This document shows, one piece after another, positions 4,258-52,418 of a stretch of DNA of 52,418 nt; positions within the stretch are counted from its first letter, which is position 1; each line of letters opens with the position of its first letter. The position numbers were made by a program, and so were the translations under genes. The stretch is from a virus (lineage: Duplodnaviria; Caudoviricetes), in the IMG/VR virus record IMGVR_UViG_3300036846_000061, positions 1 to 52,418 of that record. One strand, given 5' to 3'. Below the pieces are notes generated by a model. The model worked only from the letters and a program-made list of their open reading frames with translations, was not told where the DNA came from and searched no databases.

Positions 4258-4800
4258 ATGAGTGATCGCGCTCAAGAACGTCGTGACGATCGGGCTGGCC
4301 CTGAGCAGCAGGCTTATCAGCCATATGACTCTGCTACTTTCTTTTCAGTTGGTTTTCCTGGAATGAAAAGTACAGCTATGGATGATAATGTCGAGAGTTG
4401 GCCTTGTGGAACTGAGTCTGATTTCGGAACCGTAGTGACTAAAACTGTTGGTCCTACTGGATCGCTTCTAGTAGAGAGTGGTGGCACTGGAGATGTTGCT
4501 GGCATCGCTCTACATGATCACATCATCGCTACATACGGTCATTACTCTCAAGGAATGGCCGTATCAGTAATGACTCGCGGTCGTGTATGGTGTGCAGTTG
4601 ATGGTGCTGGCACTGGAATTACTTATGGTGCTCCTGCCAGTTTCAATCCGGCAAACGGCAAACTAAGTGCTTCTGGAACTGCTGTTCCTAATTCATCGTT
4701 CAGAGGAATGGTGAATGGCTTCTACGATATGCTCACAGGAACAACAATTAATATTGTTGAGGTTGAGCTACACTATCCATTTGCTGTAGCAGGTCCGTAA
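4258..4800 (+). CDS. Capsid decoration/cement protein
   Basis: Between scaffold and capsid genes; VSVMTRGRVW motif; AAGGAG RBS. Confidence 0.75.
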   Translation: MSDRAQERRDDRAGPEQQAYQPYDSATFFSVGFPGMKSTAMDDNVESWPCGTESDFGTVVTKTVGPTGSLLVESGGTGDVAGIALHDHIIATYGHYSQGMAVSVMTRGRVWCAVDGAGTGITYGAPASFNPANGKLSASGTAVPNSSFRGMVNGFYDMLTGTTINIVEVELHYPFAVAGP

Positions 4801-4832
4801 TCCCATCAACCCTCAACTAAAGGAATAGACTA

Positions 4833-5825
4833 ATGCTTCCAAAAGATCATGTACACTATGACGAGGCTGATCTGCCTGGCGTCATGGACTTTGTTGAACG
4901 AAACTTCCGTGAAGATCAAATTGCTACGCAAGTCTCAGGACTATGGCTTGCGCAACAACTTGATTATATTAAGTCGCAGACATATGATCGTTTGCGTCCA
5001 GGAATGAACGCTGATCGTCTTGTTCCTGACGATACATCTACTCCAGAATGGGCCGAGACTATTACCATTCGTATGTTTGACATGGTTGGTATGGCTAAAG
5101 TAATTGCCAACTATGCAGATGATCTCCCGCGCGCAGACATTGCTGGAGCGGCTCTGAGTGTTCAAGTAAAGACACTTGGCGATAGCTACGGTTACAATGT
5201 AAACGAATTGCGCGCCAGTAGAGCCACTGGAGTTGGTCTTGATACTCGCAAAGCCGATGCTGCTAGGCGAGCAATGGATCTTAAGATTGCCAGTATTAAA
5301 TTGAAGGGAGACCCTGACTTTAACTTGTTTGGATTGTTTACTCATCCAAACGTTCCAGAGTATGTCTTCCCGCATCCTGGCGATTGGACTGCTCTAACTG
5401 GCGATCAAATCTATGAGAATTTGGTCGGCCTTGCCTCTGCTTATACTCAGCAGAACCTAGGTATCCATATCGCTAACTTTTTGGAACTGGCAACTAAAGC
5501 TTATATAGCTGCCACCTCTAAATTTGTTACTGGACCTGGTGGACTTCCCATTGCTGCTCTAAGCCTGTTCGTTGCTAACTTCCCAGGCATTACTGTAGAG
5601 CATATTTGGGAATGCACTAATGCTGGGCAAGGCGCAAATGCAGGTAAGGATGTTGCGCTATTGTATGAGCGTGATATTGGAAACCTCGCGCACGAATATG
5701 TGATGCCGTTCTCGCAGCTACCTCCTGATGCGCGCAATCTAGAGATTGTTACGGATTGCCTGGCCAGGAGCGCTGGTGTTCAAATCTATTATCCTCTGTC
5801 ATTACTGAAAGGCTACACAACCTAA
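4833..5825 (+). CDS. Major capsid protein (DUF2184-like, HK97 fold)
   Basis: 330 aa; GMAKVIANYADDLPRAD, SYGYNVNEL, GLFTHPN motifs. Confidence 0.92.
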   Translation: MLPKDHVHYDEADLPGVMDFVERNFREDQIATQVSGLWLAQQLDYIKSQTYDRLRPGMNADRLVPDDTSTPEWAETITIRMFDMVGMAKVIANYADDLPRADIAGAALSVQVKTLGDSYGYNVNELRASRATGVGLDTRKADAARRAMDLKIASIKLKGDPDFNLFGLFTHPNVPEYVFPHPGDWTALTGDQIYENLVGLASAYTQQNLGIHIANFLELATKAYIAATSKFVTGPGGLPIAALSLFVANFPGITVEHIWECTNAGQGANAGKDVALLYERDIGNLAHEYVMPFSQLPPDARNLEIVTDCLARSAGVQIYYPLSLLKGYTT

Positions 5826-23292: not shown

Positions 23293-24891
23293 ATGTCAAC
23301 TTGGTGGGACCGTTTCAATCAAAGCTGGGCAGATACTGGTCCTCTTGACGATCCAACTCCTGCACAAGCAAATGTTGGTTGGGAGTATATTGGACAGGCC
23401 CCACCAACAGTTGAACAATTTAATAGTGTCCACCAATGGTGGGATAAGAAAGACAATTGGCTATTTGGTCAAATCTCTACAGTAATAACTAAAGCTAATT
23501 TGGTTCCGGTTGAGGGTGATCTTCTAACATTATGGGAAGCTATCAAATTTATATTTGAAGCTCCCAATGATGCTTATATCTATGCACGTGGACAATTAGG
23601 TTGGCATAGTGGCGGAACATTTAGTGGGGATATAACTGCTGGTATTATTACTGCTAGAGGCACTGTTAATGCTGCCTCTCATGTATCTGCTGGCGGTAAT
23701 GTTGTTGCTACTGGAAATGTTAACGCAGCAACATATTTAATATCAGGCACTGATGTTTATGTCGGCACAGTTCTTCATATTGGTGGTGGTGGTTCGCCGT
23801 GGACTATGTCAAGAGGTGGTGGATATCAAACTTCATATCATTCTACTGAATGGTATGAACAATATCAAGAGTCATCTGGTAATCGTATATGGGCTGGTAA
23901 TATTGGCGGTGGCGTCATAACTCTTATGCAATTGGCTGGCGGTAGTCTTTGGTGTGCTACTGATATTACTGCTAATAGAAATCTTGTTGCTGCTGGAACT
24001 GTTCAAGGAGGATATATAACTTCTACTGGCAATGTAAATGCTGGTGGGACTGTTACTGCTTCTGGTGATATAAATGCTAATGGCAGTATGATGGTGGGTA
24101 GTGGCATCACTTATGTTGCTTACAACTATGCATATTATAGTGGTCGGTCAAGTGATGGGGCCTGGAGATGGGTTGAGAATAACTCTCAAAATATGGAGAT
24201 GAATGCTGGTGGACGTTTGTGGATAAAACAAAATTTGAATTGCAGTCAAGCAATAGACTGGCGAGACAGTTCGTTAGCTGGCTGTTTCGGCACTACTCCT
24301 GGCGCTGCATTTAGATTTTATTCTGATGGCTCAGGCAATGCTTTCCAGCAACTAGGTGTTCAAGGTTGGGGAAGTATTATGAGTTATAATACTCAAATAT
24401 ATCCCACTGGTGGCGGCGCTTGGTCTTGTGATATTTATGGTCAAACTGCACAACATGGAAATTGTGCGGCAGCAGGATATCCTGGTTTATCAGATGCAAC
24501 TATTAAAACTAATGTTCACCCTTGGACTCCTGACTTAGATACAATATTGGGTATTGAAACGGTATCCTTTCAATATCGTGAGGACTTTATTAAAGAGAAA
24601 GGGGTTACTCATTATGGAGTAACTGCGCAACAAGTTAGAACTGTATTGCCTGAAGCTATAGTTACTTTGAAGATGGACACTACCACTAAGATTATGACTG
24701 ATCCTAACTCAGATGAAAAGTATGAGGACAATGGAACTAATGCGGTTAATATATTGGCAGTTGATTTGAACGTGGTAGTATATGCTTGCGTTAATGCAAT
24801 AAAACAATTATCTGCGAAAGTAGATGCTGCGTTAGGACCAAATCAAAATCCAGGACCATTGCCTCCAATTCGGCCAAATAAGGAAGCATAA
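23293..24891 (+). CDS. Tail fibre with C-terminal peptidase S74-type chaperone domain
   Basis: GW...GQAPPTVEQFN baseplate-anchor N-terminus; SDATIKTN...HYGVTAQQV..VLPE. Confidence 0.85.
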   Translation: MSTWWDRFNQSWADTGPLDDPTPAQANVGWEYIGQAPPTVEQFNSVHQWWDKKDNWLFGQISTVITKANLVPVEGDLLTLWEAIKFIFEAPNDAYIYARGQLGWHSGGTFSGDITAGIITARGTVNAASHVSAGGNVVATGNVNAATYLISGTDVYVGTVLHIGGGGSPWTMSRGGGYQTSYHSTEWYEQYQESSGNRIWAGNIGGGVITLMQLAGGSLWCATDITANRNLVAAGTVQGGYITSTGNVNAGGTVTASGDINANGSMMVGSGITYVAYNYAYYSGRSSDGAWRWVENNSQNMEMNAGGRLWIKQNLNCSQAIDWRDSSLAGCFGTTPGAAFRFYSDGSGNAFQQLGVQGWGSIMSYNTQIYPTGGGAWSCDIYGQTAQHGNCAAAGYPGLSDATIKTNVHPWTPDLDTILGIETVSFQYREDFIKEKGVTHYGVTAQQVRTVLPEAIVTLKMDTTTKIMTDPNSDEKYEDNGTNAVNILAVDLNVVVYACVNAIKQLSAKVDAALGPNQNPGPLPPIRPNKEA

Positions 24892-24894
24892 TGT

Positions 24895-25110
24895 GTGGAG
24901 CCATTCGACCCGCTCAAAGGTGCATTTATACTTATTGCCGCCCTAATATGTTTAGTAGCACTAACAAATCTACTCATATTTGCTGGTTGTGTTATGAAGG
25001 CAGAAACATTATGCACGAGACCAGTTAACATAGGTCAAGTGACGTTGGAATTGATTACTGCCATAGCAGTTCTGATAGCAGCACGTAAACCGCCAGGAGG
25101 TAACACATGA
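24895..25110 (+). CDS. Small membrane protein, putative holin
   Basis: Two hydrophobic segments; overlaps the lysin start. Confidence 0.5.
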   Translation: MEPFDPLKGAFILIAALICLVALTNLLIFAGCVMKAETLCTRPVNIGQVTLELITAIAVLIAARKPPGGNT

Positions 25111-25469
25111 GCTATATAGTTGAAGATCCACAACAGCATGAAGACAAAGTTATAGACAACGGACACTGTGTTCGTTTCTTGCAAGTTGCGGGTAAGGTTC
25201 CTCATACCTCTGAATGGAAAGCAGGTATGAAAGTAAAGAGTGCCATTATACCTACGGGAACTTGTATAGCTACATTTTCCGATGATGGTCAATATGAGAA
25301 CAGAACTGACGGTACTAGTCATTGTGCCGTATATTTAGGTCAAACTCCTGATGGTCTTATAGTTTATGATCAATGGCAAGGTCATCCAGTATCAATAAGA
25401 ACAATATGGTTCCGCAATGGGAAGTCTACTGCTGTAAATGATGGTGATCAATACTATGTTATTGACTAA
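25107..25469 (+). CDS. Putative endolysin, BPSL0067/Tae2-like Cys-His peptidoglycan amidase
   Basis: GHCV, GTCIATF...G.Y, SHCAVYLGQ...G..VYDQW motifs; last gene of the late module. Confidence 0.75.
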   Translation: MSYIVEDPQQHEDKVIDNGHCVRFLQVAGKVPHTSEWKAGMKVKSAIIPTGTCIATFSDDGQYENRTDGTSHCAVYLGQTPDGLIVYDQWQGHPVSIRTIWFRNGKSTAVNDGDQYYVID

Positions 25470-25590
25470 GCAAAACCCGGTGCGCCCTAAGTATGATATT
25501 GAACTTCCCGGTGCGCAATCATACTCCGGCCAGGAACTTCGTTTAGCAGAAGTAAACGCTCTCTGGACGCGGGCGCACCGGGAAGTGCAA
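25470..25590 (-). ncRNA. Candidate ~120-nt structured small RNA with alternative pairings
   Basis: Upstream TTTACT-N17-TATAAG; 5' arm complementary to two different downstream segments; ends in TTTT. Confidence 0.55.
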
Positions 25591-25595
25591 ATATA

Positions 25596-25624
25596 CTTAT
25601 AGAGGAAAAGATATATAGAGTAAA
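25596..25624 (-). promoter_or_regulatory. Putative sigma70-like promoter TTTACT-N17-TATAAG
   Basis: Same architecture as the elements at 36617-36644, 42631-42659, 47192-47220 and 50701-50729. Confidence 0.55.
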
Positions 25625-25644
25625 GTAACGATTACGTTACCCAA

Positions 25645-27087
25645 TCAAATATCTTCTGTCAAGAACCTTTGTATATCAATTATGCTACGGAAATATTGTG
25701 ACTTCATTTGTTTCGACTTCAACGCTAACAATAACCGATGATCTATAGTTCTTGGAACTATAATGTCATGATATGTTACTTTGTTCTCCTGGCCGATACG
25801 ATGGTTGCGATCCTCAGCTTGTATCCTGTCAGTAGATGACCATACATTACTATAGAATATTGTAGTTGAGGCTTCGTTCAATGTAAGCCCTGTGCCGCCA
25901 GAAGCAACAGTAATAACCAATGCTTTACATTCTGGTTCTTGGCGCCAGCGTTCTATTTCAGTGAGTCTCTGAGAGCCTTCGATCCGAGACGATACCCCTA
26001 CTGCCCGGATGCGTTTTGTAGCTAGCTCTGAAATAATTAGGTTAACGTCCATTATAAAGCGACAGAATATAATTACCTTACTAGAAGCATTCTCAACTAT
26101 CTCTGCAACTAGGCTAGCTCTATTGGACGGTATGATCTCTGTGGCTTTAGGATCATCGCTAGTATTGACATGACCGCATAATACTTGTTGTAACCGTATC
26201 ATCTTTGTTATTGCCATAGTTGCATCGACTAGTTGACCAGTCTTTAGTTCATATAATAGTTCTTGTTGTAGTTTGTTATAGATATGAGCTTGTTCCTTTG
26301 TCATATCTATTTCATTAGTGACATAGACTTTATCAGGTAAATCTAGACAATCTTTCTTGCGCTTCTGATACGCAAATGGAGCGATCCTGGAAGCTAACAT
26401 TTCCTCATTACGATATCCAACAATTTGTCTAAAGATTTGCCCACTCTTGATTTGTCTTTGATCCTCTATACAATACATACTCTTGAAAGCAGTATAGGAA
26501 CGTAATCCAATAATGTTTATATCAAGGAACCTAAATTGAGAGTATAGACCTTGTATACCTTCCTCTGCTTCTGTTCCTGTAGCTATGCGACGTATCTTGG
26601 TAAAATTGGCTAACTCTATTATTGCTTTTGTTCTTTGAGCAGTAGGATTTTTGATCTTATGACTTTCATCTATTGCCATATAGGTCATGCGCCGCGCCAG
26701 GAGTATTCGCTTGAGGTAGTTCTTGCCTCCTTCAGAAGACAAAGCTTCAATGTTCATTAGGAATACAAGTACTTTACCTGATTCCAATATAGCTTTAGTC
26801 TCTGCCTCTTTCTTTTCTATAGACATACCGGAACGCCATACTTGTATTCCCCATTTGTCATAGTTGGGAGGCCCATGTTTAAGAAACTCTGCCTTCCAAT
26901 TTATATGAACATTATTGGGCGCTATAATGACGACGCAATTGATCTCCTGGCGCTCTATCAGATTGACTACCTCGTGAACTATAATTGCACTCTTGCCTAC
27001 ACCCATCTCCATGAAGTATGCAAAGCCCGTTCTATAGTTTGCTTCTTGTATAGCTTCTTCTTGATGTTTATAGAGTGGCGGACTCAT
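25645..27087 (-). CDS. SNF2-family helicase
   Basis: MEMGVGKS, DESH, GGTGLTL, QAEDRNHRIGQ motifs. Confidence 0.92.
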   Translation of the reverse strand: MSPPLYKHQEEAIQEANYRTGFAYFMEMGVGKSAIIVHEVVNLIERQEINCVVIIAPNNVHINWKAEFLKHGPPNYDKWGIQVWRSGMSIEKKEAETKAILESGKVLVFLMNIEALSSEGGKNYLKRILLARRMTYMAIDESHKIKNPTAQRTKAIIELANFTKIRRIATGTEAEEGIQGLYSQFRFLDINIIGLRSYTAFKSMYCIEDQRQIKSGQIFRQIVGYRNEEMLASRIAPFAYQKRKKDCLDLPDKVYVTNEIDMTKEQAHIYNKLQQELLYELKTGQLVDATMAITKMIRLQQVLCGHVNTSDDPKATEIIPSNRASLVAEIVENASSKVIIFCRFIMDVNLIISELATKRIRAVGVSSRIEGSQRLTEIERWRQEPECKALVITVASGGTGLTLNEASTTIFYSNVWSSTDRIQAEDRNHRIGQENKVTYHDIIVPRTIDHRLLLALKSKQMKSQYFRSIIDIQRFLTEDI

Positions 27088-27506
27088 GGGTTCACCTTTA
27101 CTAGCCAAGATGGACAATAGACTTTGATTTCATTATTCATTATTTCAAATCTCACTTGTGTCGCTCTAATCATATTGACATTTGGTTCTGGCCAAAGAAC
27201 CTTATATGCTTCCAAGTATCCTAAATTCAAATGTATAATTTGTTTACCAACATTAGTTATATTGGCAATTAAACCACCAGGATCAGGTATCAAATATAAA
27301 CAAGCTTCATTACCTAATCCTTCTGCTACATGAAATCTTGCTTTATCATTCTCATTCTTTATGAATTGTAAACAAATATTTCTTGGAATGAAAATGTTTA
27401 GGACTTGCGAGCTTCCATGGCTGTTTATAGACATTAATACTCCTTTGTATTTATCTGGTCCTTTCCTAACATTATGTGTTATGATCTTGCGACTATAGTT
27501 ATCCAT
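27084..27506 (-). CDS. Hypothetical protein
   Basis: Coupled ORF within the operon. Confidence 0.6.
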   Translation of the reverse strand: MDNYSRKIITHNVRKGPDKYKGVLMSINSHGSSQVLNIFIPRNICLQFIKNENDKARFHVAEGLGNEACLYLIPDPGGLIANITNVGKQIIHLNLGYLEAYKVLWPEPNVNMIRATQVRFEIMNNEIKVYCPSWLVKVNP

Positions 27507-37999: not shown

Positions 38000-38022
38000 C
38001 GTATATACGGAGCGTATATACG
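38000..38022. promoter_or_regulatory. Tandem CGTATATACG palindromes (13-bp period)
   Basis: Copies at 38000 and 38013; same arrangement at 50594 and 50607. Confidence 0.6.
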
Positions 38023-39869: not shown

Positions 39870-40106
39870 CTAGCTGCTACAGTCTTCATAGCCAGCATTA
39901 GGCTCTTTTGTTGTCCAAGTATTGTCCACACGATTACAGGCAAATACTGTGAAGTTCGTATCATCCATTATAATGATACGATCTATATCATCATTAGCGA
40001 GACTATAAGATACAGCCTGTAACGCAGTCATCATATCTGCGTTCTTTACAGTATACTCATAGGCTCCGTCCAGATGATATAGAACAACAGAGAAGGTATC
40101 AGGCAT
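39870..40106 (-). CDS. Hypothetical protein (MPDTFSVVLYH...)
   Basis: GGAG RBS before ATG 40106. Confidence 0.6.
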   Translation of the reverse strand: MPDTFSVVLYHLDGAYEYTVKNADMMTALQAVSYSLANDDIDRIIIMDDTNFTVFACNRVDNTWTTKEPNAGYEDCSS

Positions 40107-40149
40107 ATTGTTCTCCAACCAATATTGTACTGCCCACGGAACGATTGAG

Positions 40150-40326
40150 TTATGATGTTTCGTCCAGCGGCTCATCGTGCCAGTAATTAGGGTCCGTGTG
40201 GACATCGTCACGAAACATCTTAGCTTTGCTAGGCCAGCAAGCCTCGCAGGCGAAACAAAGAAAGATTTGTCGCGCATCATAATGTGGTGTGCGATGTAGC
40301 TTGCTCCCACAATTACATTCGTCCAT
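40150..40326 (-). CDS. Small Cys-rich protein (MDECNCGS...YDARQIFLCFACEAC)
   Basis: Starts at the cassette RBS. Confidence 0.65.
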   Translation of the reverse strand: MDECNCGSKLHRTPHYDARQIFLCFACEACWPSKAKMFRDDVHTDPNYWHDEPLDETS

Positions 40327-40806: not shown

Positions 40807-40884
40807 CCAGCAGAACGCTGGCGGAAAGCGTATATACGCTAGTATATTCGATCGTATATACGCTTTCCGTTAGCCTTGCTGTTA
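40807..40884 (-). repeat. Early intergenic stem-loop cassette, copy 5 (inner stem built from CGTATATACG)
   Basis: CGGAAAGCGTATATACG...CGTATATACGCTTTCCG then CCAGC-n-GCTGG. Confidence 0.8.
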
Positions 40885-41481: not shown

Positions 41482-41973
41482 TTACGCAGTGGCCTCTGTA
41501 GTAGCGGTCTCTGCGACCACAACCTTGGCCTTTGCGCGGGCACGCTTAGCCTTTGCCCTCTCAGCCATCTGCTCAGGCGACAGCCAAAAGCCAAAGTCAG
41601 TATGGTCGGCCATATTCTTAGTCGGTCGATTATAGTTCAGAAGAGCGGCTGTAGGCTTCAGCGCCTCAGTCTCCACCAAATCCTTTTTGGTTTGGCGAGC
41701 CTGCTTCTGCGTCTTATGAGACGAATGAAGAGTGATGGAGTGGTTATCCACACCATACTTACGAATGGACTCCAAAATCGGGGAGTGATAGGCGCCGAAA
41801 TTGACGTCCTTAGAGCAGGCATTCAGGCCAGTCACAAACGCTTTTGGCGTTACGCTACGGACCGAAATGAACCTGCCACCTGTCTTCAGGTTGCGAACGA
41901 TGAGAATGCTGTAATCGTAACCATTCTCCATAGCTGCGAGAACAGAAGCATTCACGGTGTCGAGGTTATGCAT
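41482..41973 (-). CDS. Degenerate GIY-YIG-like protein with basic C-terminal tail
   Basis: SILIVRNLKTGGRFIS...SIRKYGVDNHSI...LNYN spacing resembles GIY-YIG; TAGAAAGG RBS before ATG 41973. Confidence 0.55.
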   Translation of the reverse strand: MHNLDTVNASVLAAMENGYDYSILIVRNLKTGGRFISVRSVTPKAFVTGLNACSKDVNFGAYHSPILESIRKYGVDNHSITLHSSHKTQKQARQTKKDLVETEALKPTAALLNYNRPTKNMADHTDFGFWLSPEQMAERAKAKRARAKAKVVVAETATTEATA

Positions 41974-42199
41974 AATATGTAGCCTTTCTAGGTTTGGGTC
42001 TGCGTTTTGTTTTCTGGGCTTCCCACCAGCACGTATATACGAATGTATAGACGCGGCCGCATTAAACAACGTGTACAATCCCGCCAATGGCTACATACAC
42101 GCTGCCCCTAGAAAGGAACAACGGATCATCCAGCGGTATATGGGAAAGTATATACGCATCCATATTCGCTCGATGTAGACCAGATTAACTATATATCAT

Positions 42200-42800
42200 A
42201 CTCACATACCGGCTTGCCGCCCTAGGGGCGCGTATCCTGCCCGCTCTAGTGGCTTCCCGTATGCTTTCGTATATACCGTTTCAAAGAATGGCGGATGTAA
42301 GGAAAAATCGGCCTAGGCGCGACCCAACTAGCTGGTCTGGGCTGGCGCTTTCGTCTAGCGCGCCAGGCAATCTTGACGATTACCTGCCCTTATCGCTTCC
42401 CTGACTACCCTGGCGGAACCTAGTGGGTTCCTATGGGCGCCTAGGCTCTAGCGCCTAGCCTAGTGGCCTACCCTACGGGGAGGCGCCTAGGCGACGCTAG
42501 GGAAGCTCTAGAGGTGCCCTACGCGGGCGCCTCCGAGCCTCCGAGATGTCCTATTCTCCTGTCAAACAACGCGAGCAGAAATTCGTTACGGCCCCGATCG
42601 GGCTGCCCTCTAGACCACCGATCTAGGGATAGTCTAGCCTATCCCATCTTGGAAGTAAAGCCCAAACTTATGGGGTTCAGTCTTTTTATTTAGACGGTCT
42701 CAAGGACCGCTCCTGGCGCCAGGAGGAAAAGACCTGCCATTTCCTGGGCCTAGGATGCATGCTAGGGTGGTTCTAGTCTTGGAAGGCTAGGGTTATGCAG
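42200..42800. other. GC-rich non-coding region dense in CTAG/CCTAGG/GGCGCC palindromes
   Basis: No credible ORF; includes the perfect palindrome CTCCTGGCGCCAGGAG at 42710-42725. Confidence 0.6.
42631..42659 (-). promoter_or_regulatory. Putative early promoter TTTACT-N17-TAGACT
   Basis: Points into the early gene array; shares TTTACTTCCAA with 50701. Confidence 0.55.
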
Positions 42801-42951
42801 CCCGAAACACGTTCGCGTTTGTTCTCCCCCTGTTCCCGTTACGTTCTGCCCAATGATTTCAATGACTTACGGGCCATGAACGCTAAATTTTTGGTAATCT
42901 GTAACGCAGGCTACTGACTGGTAGTTCTCTGTTTGTTCTCGTTTGATGACC

Positions 42952-42991: not shown

Positions 42992-43507
42992 CTATTGGAC
43001 TTGCTTACGTCCATACTTGAGTTTAAGCTTTTTGTCCTCAGTCTCAATGGCCTTAATGAGACCATTCCTTACATCGTCCAATTCCTGAGCATCTTCCGCG
43101 TTGTAGGTCGATGTTCTGGAAATTATACCGGCTCGCCTCTCAAACTTAGTCTTGTATTTTGCAGGATCATTACGCATCAACATTTGCTGATACTCTTTGA
43201 GAGGCTCAAAGTATAGTCGCGTTTCAGTATTAGTTGTGGATGTAATGACAACCAACTCATGATAGTTTCTGAGATAGTTCACCCATTTAGTAAATGCCAA
43301 TTTCAATTCCTTGGCATCATCGGTTATTTTGTAGTGCTTCCAATCTATTGGAAGATGATCGTATTTTCCAAAATCTTCTGGAAGCACTCCTGGTTCGTCT
43401 ATAGCAGCATCTTTGAATCTTTCTAGAGTGGACTTTGAATTCACTCTAGGCTTCAACTTATCTGTTATATTCTTCCAGGGAGTTAGGCGAACATACTTTG
43501 GCATCAT
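42992..43507 (-). CDS. Hypothetical basic protein
   Basis: 171 aa; followed by a terminator. Confidence 0.7.
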   Translation of the reverse strand: MMPKYVRLTPWKNITDKLKPRVNSKSTLERFKDAAIDEPGVLPEDFGKYDHLPIDWKHYKITDDAKELKLAFTKWVNYLRNYHELVVITSTTNTETRLYFEPLKEYQQMLMRNDPAKYKTKFERRAGIISRTSTYNAEDAQELDDVRNGLIKAIETEDKKLKLKYGRKQVQ

Positions 43508-43515
43508 ATTCTCTT

Positions 43516-44313
43516 TCAGTTATGTCCGATAAGTAAAGATGTGATTTGTGTATTTTGGGTTTGTGCTCCTTTCTTTCTCAATGGACAAGGACACAGGGCA
43601 CTAAGTATCCCCATGTATTGTTTAATGAGCCGAAGCTCATTCATCACCATTGATGGAAGTTCAACTTGTCGTTCCATCAATTCTGCTAAATCTTGATCTT
43701 TACCTTGCATACCCAAAGTGGCTCTTTTCAAGCTTCTAGATATGAGAGATAAAGAACCCAATAAAGCAACTTGAGCCTTGGAGTCCAATTCCTCTTTTGA
43801 GGGAGGAATATTGGGCTTGCGCCTATTGATATGGACTGGCTCTGGTGATGCCTTGCTTTTAGCGTAGTCAGACAAGTTTTTGGTAGATGCTTTAGGCTCT
43901 TTGACTTTCTCTTCAAACTCAGCCTCAGGAATACTAGCAATGCGCTCCCATTTATGAGCTTGATCCTTATGGATTTTGTTACGATCCATTGCTGTTCGTT
44001 TCGACTCCGCGCTAAGTCGCGTCGAGCGATCTAGCGCGGCTTCGTAACGACTATTGGTGGTTTTGGCTTTAGGCAATTTCGCCAATAACTCACCAGCCTT
44101 ACGTTCAGCACGCAATCTTATTTCGCGAGCCATACGTTCGTTTTCGTGGTTTTTAGCTTGCTGACTATACTTTTCAAGAGCAATAGCTTTGTCACGTATG
44201 TCCTTTACTTCATCGACACGGTGACATTCAACTATTGCAGAACACATTTTCTCATACAATAACACACCAGTGTTATCGGACACAACCTCAAGTTGTGTTA
44301 CCATTTTAGTCAC
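43516..44313 (-). CDS. Hypothetical protein with the helical N-terminal domain often seen ahead of phage adenine methyltransferases
   Basis: VDEVKDIRDKA...YSQQAK...EIRLRAERKAGELL; no MTase motifs visible. Confidence 0.65.
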   Translation of the reverse strand: MTKMVTQLEVVSDNTGVLLYEKMCSAIVECHRVDEVKDIRDKAIALEKYSQQAKNHENERMAREIRLRAERKAGELLAKLPKAKTTNSRYEAALDRSTRLSAESKRTAMDRNKIHKDQAHKWERIASIPEAEFEEKVKEPKASTKNLSDYAKSKASPEPVHINRRKPNIPPSKEELDSKAQVALLGSLSLISRSLKRATLGMQGKDQDLAELMERQVELPSMVMNELRLIKQYMGILSALCPCPLRKKGAQTQNTQITSLLIGHN

Positions 44314-50593: not shown

Positions 50594-50729
50594 CGTATAT
50601 ACGCATCGTATATACGATGATAGTTTCGTTAGAAACGAAACTAAATAAAGGAGAACGACATAGGAACGATAAACTTTTCGCGTGCCGATCGTTTTTCCTC
50701 TTTACTTCCAAATTGCAATCGTATATACG
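50594..50729 (+). promoter_or_regulatory. Late control region: three CGTATATACG palindromes and a TTTACT-N17-TATACG promoter candidate
   Basis: Palindromes at 50594, 50607 and 50720; the last overlaps the -10 position. Confidence 0.5.
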
Positions 50730-51076: not shown

Positions 51077-52418
51077 TGTATGATGGATTTGATACTGACT
51101 CTGATCTAAGACCGCAACCAGGTCCACAAGAACAATTCTTGTCTACTGCTGCCGACATAGCTATATATGGAGGTGCCGCTGGAGGTGGTAAGACTTATGC
51201 TCTACTGCTTGAGCCTTGTCGTCATATTGATAATGCTGACTTCGGCGCTGTCATATTTCGTCGCGAGGCTGTTCAAATCACTTCTGAAGGAGGTTTGTTC
51301 GACACCAGTTTCCAAATATACGAGCGTATAGACGGCACTCCAAGACAAAGCCCATATAAGATGTGGACGTTTACTAGTGGCGCCACTATAACGTTCAGCC
51401 ATCTTCACAATAACCACGATGTAAATGACTGGCAAGGATCACAAATCCCGCTCATTGGATACGACGAACTCACCCATTTTACTGAACAGCAATTTTGGTA
51501 TATGTTGTCCCGCAATAGGTCGATGTGTGGTGTTCGACCGTATATACGTGCGACATGTAATCCTGATGCTGACTCTTGGGTTGCTGATTTGGTGTCTTGG
51601 TATATTGATCAAGATACTGGTTATCCTTTGCCCGATAGGTCTGGCATCATACGTTATTTTATTAGAACAGACGACAAAATGATTTGGGCAAATACGCGCC
51701 AGGAGTTACTATGTAAGTTCCCTGGATCACTGCCGAAATCATTTACATTCATCCCTGCTACTCTTGAAGACAATGTTATTCTAAACAATCAAGACCCAGA
51801 CTACCGCGCTAATCTAGAGATGATGACTAGAGTAGAACGCGAGCGTCTGTTACACGGTAATTGGAAGATTAAACCTACAGCTGGTTCTTACTTCCCACAG
51901 ACTTGTATAAATATAATCCCAGCCGAACCTACCGATGTAAAGGTTTGGATTAGACGTTGGGATTTGGCAGCTACAGAGCCCAGTGAAGTTAGTCCATCGC
52001 CTAGTGCTACCGCATCAGTGTTAATGGGTCGCAGAGAGAATGGCAGATTTGTTATTGCTGATGGGATTAATATACGGCGTAACGCTTCTGTGGTGCGTGA
52101 TATATTGTCTGCTACTGCTTCACAGGATCGAAGCAAGTATAGGCGAGTTACAACAGTCGTGCCACAAGATCCAGGACAGGCTGGAAAAGATCAGTCAGCA
52201 TCTATCATCGCTTTCCTCGCAGGTTATAAGGTTAAATCTATACGAGAAACAGGACCCAAGATTACTAGAGCAGAACCTTTGTCTGCCCAATGGCAAGCCG
52301 GAAATGTTGACATAGTAGATGGTCCGTGGGTCCGGGATTACTTGAAGGAAATGGCTGCGTTTCCTGAAGGTGATCATGATGATTATGTCGATGCTAGTAG
52401 TGGTGCCTTTCTTGAGTG
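51076..52418 (+). CDS. terL: Terminase large subunit (463 aa across the circular join)
   Basis: Hand-translated: PQPGPQEQFL, YGGAAGGGKT, YDELTHF, RATCNP, WDLA, QDPGQAGK; absent from the ORF track because the stop lies past the window end. Confidence 0.95.
   Translation, partial: MYDGFDTDSDLRPQPGPQEQFLSTAADIAIYGGAAGGGKTYALLLEPCRHIDNADFGAVIFRREAVQITSEGGLFDTSFQIYERIDGTPRQSPYKMWTFTSGATITFSHLHNNHDVNDWQGSQIPLIGYDELTHFTEQQFWYMLSRNRSMCGVRPYIRATCNPDADSWVADLVSWYIDQDTGYPLPDRSGIIRYFIRTDDKMIWANTRQELLCKFPGSLPKSFTFIPATLEDNVILNNQDPDYRANLEMMTRVERERLLHGNWKIKPTAGSYFPQTCINIIPAEPTDVKVWIRRWDLAATEPSEVSPSPSATASVLMGRRENGRFVIADGINIRRNASVVRDILSATASQDRSKYRRVTTVVPQDPGQAGKDQSASIIAFLAGYKVKSIRETGPKITRAEPLSAQWQAGNVDIVDGPWVRDYLKEMAAFPEGDHDDYVDASSGAFLE
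52292..52418. repeat. Terminal repeat copy (identical to 1-127)
   Basis: Exact sequence identity. Confidence 0.95.

Follow-up and report, generated by a model that had tools for sequence, protein, structure and literature searches.

What, if anything, is encoded by the 175 bp at which the two halves of this phage genome meet? The window (the whole stretch of DNA that we analysed, 52,418 bp in length) is a complete uncultured virus record with direct terminal repeats, and both its GC skew and its open reading frames divide it into two convergent halves, with plus-strand structural and tail genes running up to 25469 and minus-strand replication genes running down to 25645. An initial annotation had placed a bistable small RNA with its own promoter between these modules, and the location proved exact, as the element fills the entire 175-bp gap between the convergent genes 25107..25469 (+) and 25645..27117 (-). 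The only match to the window in public runs was a soil metagenome, with no RNA run among the matches; this DNA run is probably the source of the record, and one of its contigs covers positions 25097-26112 with no differences from the window and without a joint.

The genes on either side of the element are the last of their respective modules. On the replication side, the minus-strand gene 25645..27117 specifies an SNF2-family helicase (PF00176, 4.2e-20; PF00271, 2.8e-15) whose best matches in cultured phages are ~35% identical; the element lies 3' of its stop codon, and a DNA polymerase III alpha gene neighbours it on the other side. On the tail/late side, the plus-strand gene 25107..25469 specifies a 120-aa protein of the BPSL0067 family (NF033857 of NCBIfam, 4.6e-21), for which searches of Pfam and PHROG returned no match. 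Upstream of this gene are two tail-fibre genes and a 71-aa ORF (24895-25110, +), the end of which overlaps the start of the 120-aa gene and the product of which has hydrophobic stretches resembling two transmembrane segments. The initial annotation had referred to the 120-aa gene as a lysin gene; the family assignment replaces that identification, while a lysin role stays plausible, as does the idea that the 71-aa ORF and the 120-aa gene constitute a holin-lysin pair.

Every motif that had been described within the element was found on the minus strand where the annotation had placed it. Read in the direction of the helicase gene, the first part of the element, 3 nt past the helicase stop codon, is an upstream hairpin (25623..25642, -), in which the palindrome GTAACG-N4-CGTTAC (25625-25640), adjoining TTTACT, is extended by G-U pairs; at 0 mismatches the palindrome occurs just once in the window. 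This hairpin could be a terminator of the helicase operon, a site for a regulator, or both. It is followed by a promoter-like TTTACT-N17-TATAAG (25596..25624, -; TTTACT at 25624-25619 and TATAAG at 25601-25596), the promoter function of which is hypothetical, and then by the 5' arm, A (25571..25590, -, delimited from inverted repeats and constrained folds; 25585-25571 in the initial annotation), which is the strand common to two alternative helices. Beyond the arm lies a central hairpin, P2 (25527..25569, -), with the base CG-U-CC...GG-C-CG containing a U.C mismatch, and then P3 (25490..25525, -), an 8-bp hairpin found both in the fold and as an inverted repeat, in which AGTATGAT (25525-25518) pairs with ATCATACT (25497-25490). 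The loop of P3 holds the internal partner of the arm, A' (25516-25504, -, extendable to 25499), and A:A' amounts to 17 pairs. The terminal partner, A'' (25476..25487, -), forms a perfect 12-bp helix with 25582-25571 and is followed by TTTT (25475-25472) as part of the U-run UUUUGCUU (25468..25475, -), which lies directly 3' of A'' and extends as far as the convergent gene's stop codon (25467-25469). For plus-strand transcripts the window copy has no U-run.

The repeats underlying this arrangement stand out from the rest of the genome. A search for inverted repeats recovered A:A' (18 nt, 94%), A:A'' (12 nt, 100%) and P3 (8 nt, 100%), together with a 10-nt direct repeat. The 10-mer GCGCACCGGG occurs in three exact copies, all inside the element and none elsewhere in the 52-kb phage; allowing up to one mismatch there are four sites, one of them outside the element, compared to 0.71 expected, and none of 100 shuffles reached four.

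A homologous element is present in a second phage. In L020 (genome G006), whose helicase is 76% identical to that of the window, it lies directly after the helicase stop codon (L020 ~4459-4675), and the parts of the two copies have been preserved to very different degrees. The upstream palindrome with TTTACTC is identical at 21 of 23 bases, both differences falling within the 4-nt loop, and the hexamers are spaced 17 nt apart in both copies, with TATAAG (window) or TAGAGT (L020) as the second. Also common to both, at matching spacings, are CCGCGTCC and a GGCCGG core, the latter followed in each by a short similar stretch. The base of P2 (CG-U-CC/GG-C-CG) is identical while its extension covaries (AG:CU versus UACC:GGUA). 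The arms, in contrast, differ entirely in sequence, with pairing maintained: arm A of L020 (4520-4535) forms 14 pairs, 3 of them G-U, with A' (4583-4596), and 21 pairs, 3 of them G-U and with two single-base bulges, with A'' (4625-4644). In L020, A'' is contained within a 20-pair hairpin (4597-4660) that is followed by a U-rich run (4664-4675) overlapping the stop codon of a convergent 355-aa ORF (4670..5737, -), and this long hairpin is flanked by the U-rich run at one end and by an A-rich one at the other. Pairing of A with sequence 3' of A' yields a duplex of -34.3 kcal/mol in the window and -26.9 kcal/mol in L020, and for neither was any of 2000 dinucleotide shuffles as good. Both pairings of the arm, on the strand of the helicase gene, are kept in this diverged homologue, the one that we found, despite arms of different sequence, so the annotation's proposal of two alternative partners holds beyond the window and the element passes the refutation test that the annotation had set, conservation of both pairings in relatives. 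That the structure survived divergence as deep as that between helicases of 76% identity suggests selection on pairing. As the covariation comes from only two sequences, it is not amenable to statistical assessment.

Which strand the structure belongs to is likewise indicated by the homologue. The minus strand of the window element has a minimum free energy (MFE) of -54.4 kcal/mol (z -4.70; 0 of 200 shuffles as good), and the MFE structure is the second of the two folds drawn in the annotation, comprising A:A'', the central hairpin P2 and the 8-bp P3 that loops out A'; P2 is present in each fold, as had been proposed for the central domain. The plus strand of the window, with -51.8 kcal/mol (z -5.12), folds equally well, and the window alone therefore does not give the strand. 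In L020 the helicase strand folds to -82.5 kcal/mol (z -5.26) versus -63.1 kcal/mol (z -1.97) for the opposite strand, and all arm mismatches on the helicase strand are of the G-U type (3 of 14 pairs in A:A' and 3 of 21 in A:A''). These G-U pairs and the difference in fold between strands assign the structure to the helicase strand; coming from a single L020 sequence, they favour an RNA of that strand as its likely carrier. The upstream palindrome shows a strand asymmetry of its own, in that an AAA:UUU extension in L020 appears as a GG.UU wobble in the window, and the upstream hairpin folds to -7.6 kcal/mol in the window and -12.5 kcal/mol in L020, where it has a 10-bp stem. The pair lists derive from constrained folds, and the arms are not column-consistent in MAFFT or cmalign alignments. 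On the whole, the evidence from pairing and strand would argue against chance, recent duplication and double-stranded protein sites as explanations for the element.

The element does not appear to belong to a described RNA family, in keeping with the initial annotation, which had not recognised one; it has no Rfam match and is noncoding. At Rfam gathering thresholds the whole window yielded 0 matches. With Rfam 15 at E values up to 10, window positions 25200-25900 gave chance matches only (snoR80, 28 bits versus a gathering score of 45; mir-7640, 17 versus 90), L020 4440-4720 gave ceN108 alone (13.7 bits versus 50), and neither copy matched the C4 antisense RNA. With regard to coding potential, the two copies share no conserved ORF: those of at least 50 aa are confined to opposite strands of the element in the window and in L020; we accordingly rejected a conserved small protein, as no same-strand ORF is common to the two copies. 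A tRNA or tmRNA was likewise rejected (ARAGORN found 0). An 11-codon ORF (25522..25487, -; ATG 25522-25520, stop 25489-25487) spans A' and the 3' strand of P3 and has a GGAG just 1 nt upstream, and it has no counterpart in L020.

Searches for further copies left the known instances of the element at two, those of the window and of L020. A blastn search for distant matches with window positions 24500-26500 against GenBank phages found none, and exact and gapped patterns run against IMG/VR had the L020 contig as their sole true match, the others (6 of 7 and 3 of 4) being coding or high-GC chance matches. The palindrome pattern had four matches among the genome contigs, none with the RNA core, and alignment of the helicase to the genome contigs disclosed no relative; the sole metagenome match to the 120-aa protein, L016, was set aside as a high-GC, non-syntenic contig. 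No new copy emerged from blastn-short searches of the collected related loci with both elements. A covariance model built from both copies, when run over 314,789 bases from 30 sources (the complete G001 and G006 among them) and over G002-G005, recovered nothing beyond the copies on which it had been trained and the reverse strand of the window. A match to CGCGTCC...GGCCG at 13.3 kb in G001 proved to be unrelated sequence. In the portions of text returned by a full-text literature search, no description resembled the element.

Comparison of related phages at this junction shows the gap to be an indel. The 175 bp are cleanly absent from G001 (locus L013), which in a whole-genome comparison is overall the closest genome, with 80-90% protein identity in structural genes. 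There, the 120-aa protein is 81% and the helicase 78-79% identical to those of the window and no spacer is found at the junction, where the stop codons of the helicase and BPSL0067-family genes overlap in cTAG (L013 3360-3363); the early and late modules meet there without a terminator, and the element is absent from the rest of the G001 genome. A convergent ORF also abuts the helicase stop codon, with no spacer, in L018 (helicase 65%), while in L019 and L062 (helicase 54-55%) a co-directional gene follows the helicase gene. Since G001 and L018 do without the spacer, the element is dispensable. In structural genes genome G006 is 35-65% identical to the window, in the genes for helicase and DNA polymerase III alpha 76-78%, and a tree of helicases did not order the three close phages (window, G001 and G006). 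These comparisons would fit either an old element that was precisely lost in G001 or one that moved with the replication module. No protein is present in the window and G006 yet absent from G001, and no co-occurring partner protein was thereby found. The genomes are mosaic in other respects as well: G006 is without the 120-aa and 71-aa genes, and the window ORFs 27084..27506, 39870..40310, 42992..43507 and 43516..44313 have no match in G001 or G006.

Whether the RNA is bistable, as had been claimed, is distinct from whether its arm has two partners. The mutually exclusive partners are real in both phages, but at equilibrium the bistability is not borne out. In constrained folds of the window element, A:A'' reaches -54.4 kcal/mol and A:A' -47.5 kcal/mol, a difference of ~6.9 kcal/mol, and in the ensemble the terminal pairing has a probability of ~0.999 and A:A' a weight of ~5e-5. 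For L020, A:A' together with the 20-pair hairpin reaches -68.9 kcal/mol and A:A'' -49.8 kcal/mol, a difference of ~19.1 kcal/mol. With energy gaps this large there is no bistability at equilibrium in either RNA, and each favours a different partner, the terminal A'' in the window and the internal A' in L020. Folds of the growing chain have A:A' forming first in both phages. In the window A:A'' replaces it only once A'' is out, at a length of at least 112 nt; in L020 A:A'' is the MFE structure at 126 nt (-47.0 versus -45.5 kcal/mol), before the 3' half of the terminator emerges. Given this order and refolding barriers of 16-19 kcal/mol (direct-path estimate), a kinetic choice between partners is possible, and the models are compatible with a switch that operates co-transcriptionally.

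The annotation had also given the element its own promoter, and here only the motif withstood scrutiny: the hexamers and their 17-nt spacer are present, while a sigma-70 scan listed the site in neither the window nor L020 (the promoter consensus of the host may differ). A promoter of the sigma-70 type should have near-consensus hexamers 16-18 nt apart, with A2 and T6 in the -10 element; TATAAG is without T6, its L020 equivalent is TAGAGT, and TTTACT doubles as the U-rich 3' tail of the conserved upstream hairpin, which could itself be a weak helicase terminator. A regulatory word found elsewhere in the window, CGTATATACG, does not occur in the element. We accordingly describe the promoter at 25596..25624 as putative. 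As for termination, a simple scan for intrinsic terminators listed nothing in the element of either phage. In folds of the window RNA a 12-bp G+C-rich stem is followed by UUUU; this stem closes an 83-nt branched loop, and a 12-bp stem around an 83-nt multiloop is atypical for an intrinsic terminator.

We consider it likely that the spacer specifies a structured early-strand RNA element that is functional and is positioned at the early/late junction. As to what such an RNA would do, we tentatively favour, without regarding it as established or even probable, a conditional transcription stop, that is, an attenuator-like insulator in which A' and A'' would compete for A, the outcome determining whether transcription of the early strand stops or reads through as antisense. 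The succession of upstream hairpin, AT-rich promoter-like stretch, A, P2, A', and A'' beside the U-run would lend itself to such a mechanism, of which we infer the transcription of the element, its promoter, termination at the U-run, the switching and its trigger. During synthesis A:A' would pair first. In the window, A'' would then displace A', and the resulting stem with its U-run would end the transcript; in L020, the long terminator hairpin, a separate structure, could fold as long as A is paired with A', and would be disrupted by A:A''. Early-strand transcription would accordingly either halt at the module boundary or continue antisense into the last late gene. Several points count against a conditional stop. 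The logic would be opposite in the two phages, with A:A'' acting as terminator in the window and as antiterminator in L020, and neither phage has a downstream gene on the sense strand. The states lie 6.9 and 19.1 kcal/mol apart, the terminator stem is atypical, and G001 and L018 are free of the spacer. No trigger was identified, and the mini-ORF over A' is absent from L020. A version in which the A:A'-P2 domain serves as an aptamer-like sensor of a metabolite or of a phage or host protein, and so sets termination at the module boundary versus antisense read-through into the last late (lysis or tail) gene, is in our view quite improbable; the base of P2 is invariant between the two copies. Were it true, the element would be a riboswitch-like timer of late genes with no sense-strand gene under its control, and one sensor would have been wired to opposite expression platforms in two phages.

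Other accounts of the same RNA have to be weighed against the conditional stop. One is that the element simply serves the helicase operon as a compound terminator, as an insulator or to stabilise its 3' UTR, with no promoter of its own and no switching; its stable structure would halt or protect early transcripts where the modules meet, and the second complement would be redundancy or the relic of a local duplication. This would suit the position of the element directly after the helicase stop codon in both phages, the failure of the hexamers in the promoter scan (with TTTACT lying in the tail of the upstream hairpin), the strong dominance of one state at equilibrium in each phage, and the 20-pair hairpin of L020, whose U-rich tail over the convergent stop codon is what one expects of a terminator at such a junction. 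It sits less well with the arms, as a duplication relic is unlikely to have stayed complementary to A after full turnover of the arm sequence (0 of 2000 shuffles in each phage), nor does it account for the identical 17-nt hexamer spacing of the two copies or for two relatives that manage without any terminator at the junction; on balance we think this explanation possible and on the unlikely side. Somewhat less likely again is a free-standing small RNA gene, or "moron", with its own promoter and terminator, which would act by base-pairing and in which the role of the alternative arms would be limited to shaping or masking the RNA. It could pair with late transcripts that enter the spacer, at their 3' end (cis-antisense, in the manner of lambda OOP), or with a host RNA. 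Hairpins do flank an AT-rich promoter-like stretch of conserved spacing, the product would be a compact RNA of ~115-160 nt ending in a stem and U-run with full complementarity to any late transcript running past its stop codon, and the patchy presence of the element among relatives resembles that of accessory cassettes. Against such a gene, neither copy has a promoter call, the phage contains no further copy of the arm that could be a target in trans, and a start near 25589 would have the RNA begin within arm A, with no single-stranded seed.

The least probable account, to which we give little credence, places the function in DNA, with the repeats as iterons or operators for a phage-specific protein, as an origin, or as what a small mobile insertion carried or left behind. 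Such an element would have features seen here, namely a 10-13-bp word present in three copies beside replication genes and a clean 175-bp indel relative to G001, and phage-specific sets of sites can co-diverge with their binding protein. Every substitution that separates A from its partners in L020, however, is of the G-U kind on one strand, folding differs greatly between the strands, and the central hairpin covaries. Nor do the ends of the indel carry terminal inverted repeats or a clear target duplication, no second copy was found in the window, in G001, in G006 or, by pattern, in IMG/VR, and there is no protein in the window and G006 yet absent from G001. A MITE-like mobile element was rejected on account of the single copy and the absence of terminal repeats at the ends of the indel.

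Set against known systems, the conditional stop most readily invites comparison with leaders that work through terminator, antiterminator and anti-antiterminator helices, with which the element shares a strand, A, common to two exclusive helices and one state tied to a stem and U-run. In L020, A:A' would correspond to the anti-antiterminator, A:A'' to the antiterminator and the separate hairpin to the terminator. Unlike an attenuator leader, the element is located not at the 5' end of an operon but at its 3' end, facing a convergent gene, and no sense gene follows it, the only gene downstream being the convergent 25107..25469 (+) in the window and 4670..5737 (-) in L020. It contains no recognised ligand aptamer, leader peptide or tRNA sensor, the roles of the helices differ between the copies, and there is no match to a riboswitch or leader in Rfam. 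Bidirectional intrinsic terminators also lie between convergent stop codons, and the L020 hairpin, A-rich on one side and U-rich on the other, resembles them; the element differs in being much larger and branched, in having a duplicated arm and in being absent from two relatives.

Small regulatory RNAs of phages offer further parallels. Lambda OOP and P22 sar are described as short phage RNAs with their own promoter that run convergently towards the 3' end of the target gene (PMC12197685). An RNA from the element would similarly have its end at the last late gene's stop codon, with any read-through antisense to that gene; it differs in that the window element has no coding overlap unless read through, bears no sequence or Rfam relation to OOP or sar, and has a putative promoter and transcript. 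To our knowledge, no two-partner arm has been described for OOP. Complementary segments, seqA, seqB and seqC, are a feature of the P4 CI RNA. In the c4 RNA of P1 and P7, according to the same source, a segment complementary to two repeats in its own transcription unit controls downstream transcription or translation by pairing (PMC12197685). The likeness of the element to c4 and P4 CI is one of concept only, in that one segment is complementary to two repeats; in the element one 5' arm precedes two 3' copies, there is no immunity context and Rfam gives no match.

If the element is real, it would represent an undescribed class of phage RNA, and the retention of both helices through complete turnover of the arms would be rare direct evolutionary evidence for a two-state RNA. 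Its site would be unusual as well, being the point at which early and late transcription collide, where the element could gate antisense transcription into late genes. As close relatives are without it, its effect would be cleanly measurable by adding or removing it. Were it merely a compound terminator, it would be an ordinary feature.

Two other features of the window, both outside the element, may be recorded here. The palindromic 10-mer CGTATATACG has 18 sites at up to one mismatch (10 of them exact) versus 1.13 expected, at 38000-38022, 39696, 40829-40862, 41415, 42032-42277, 44537, 50594-50729 and 51325-51548. Within the early region the sites lie in stretches with few ORFs and often form pairs 13-24 nt apart. 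G001 has the 10-mer as well, and it is probably an operator or a promoter-associated word of this group of phages. Separately, a region of ~1 kb (41958-42942) has a raised G+C content (0.49-0.53) and is mostly without a long ORF. A stretch of G001 that is just as poor in ORFs (L083 1200-2300) is 74% identical to this region, which has no match in Rfam and could house small genes or a large noncoding RNA.
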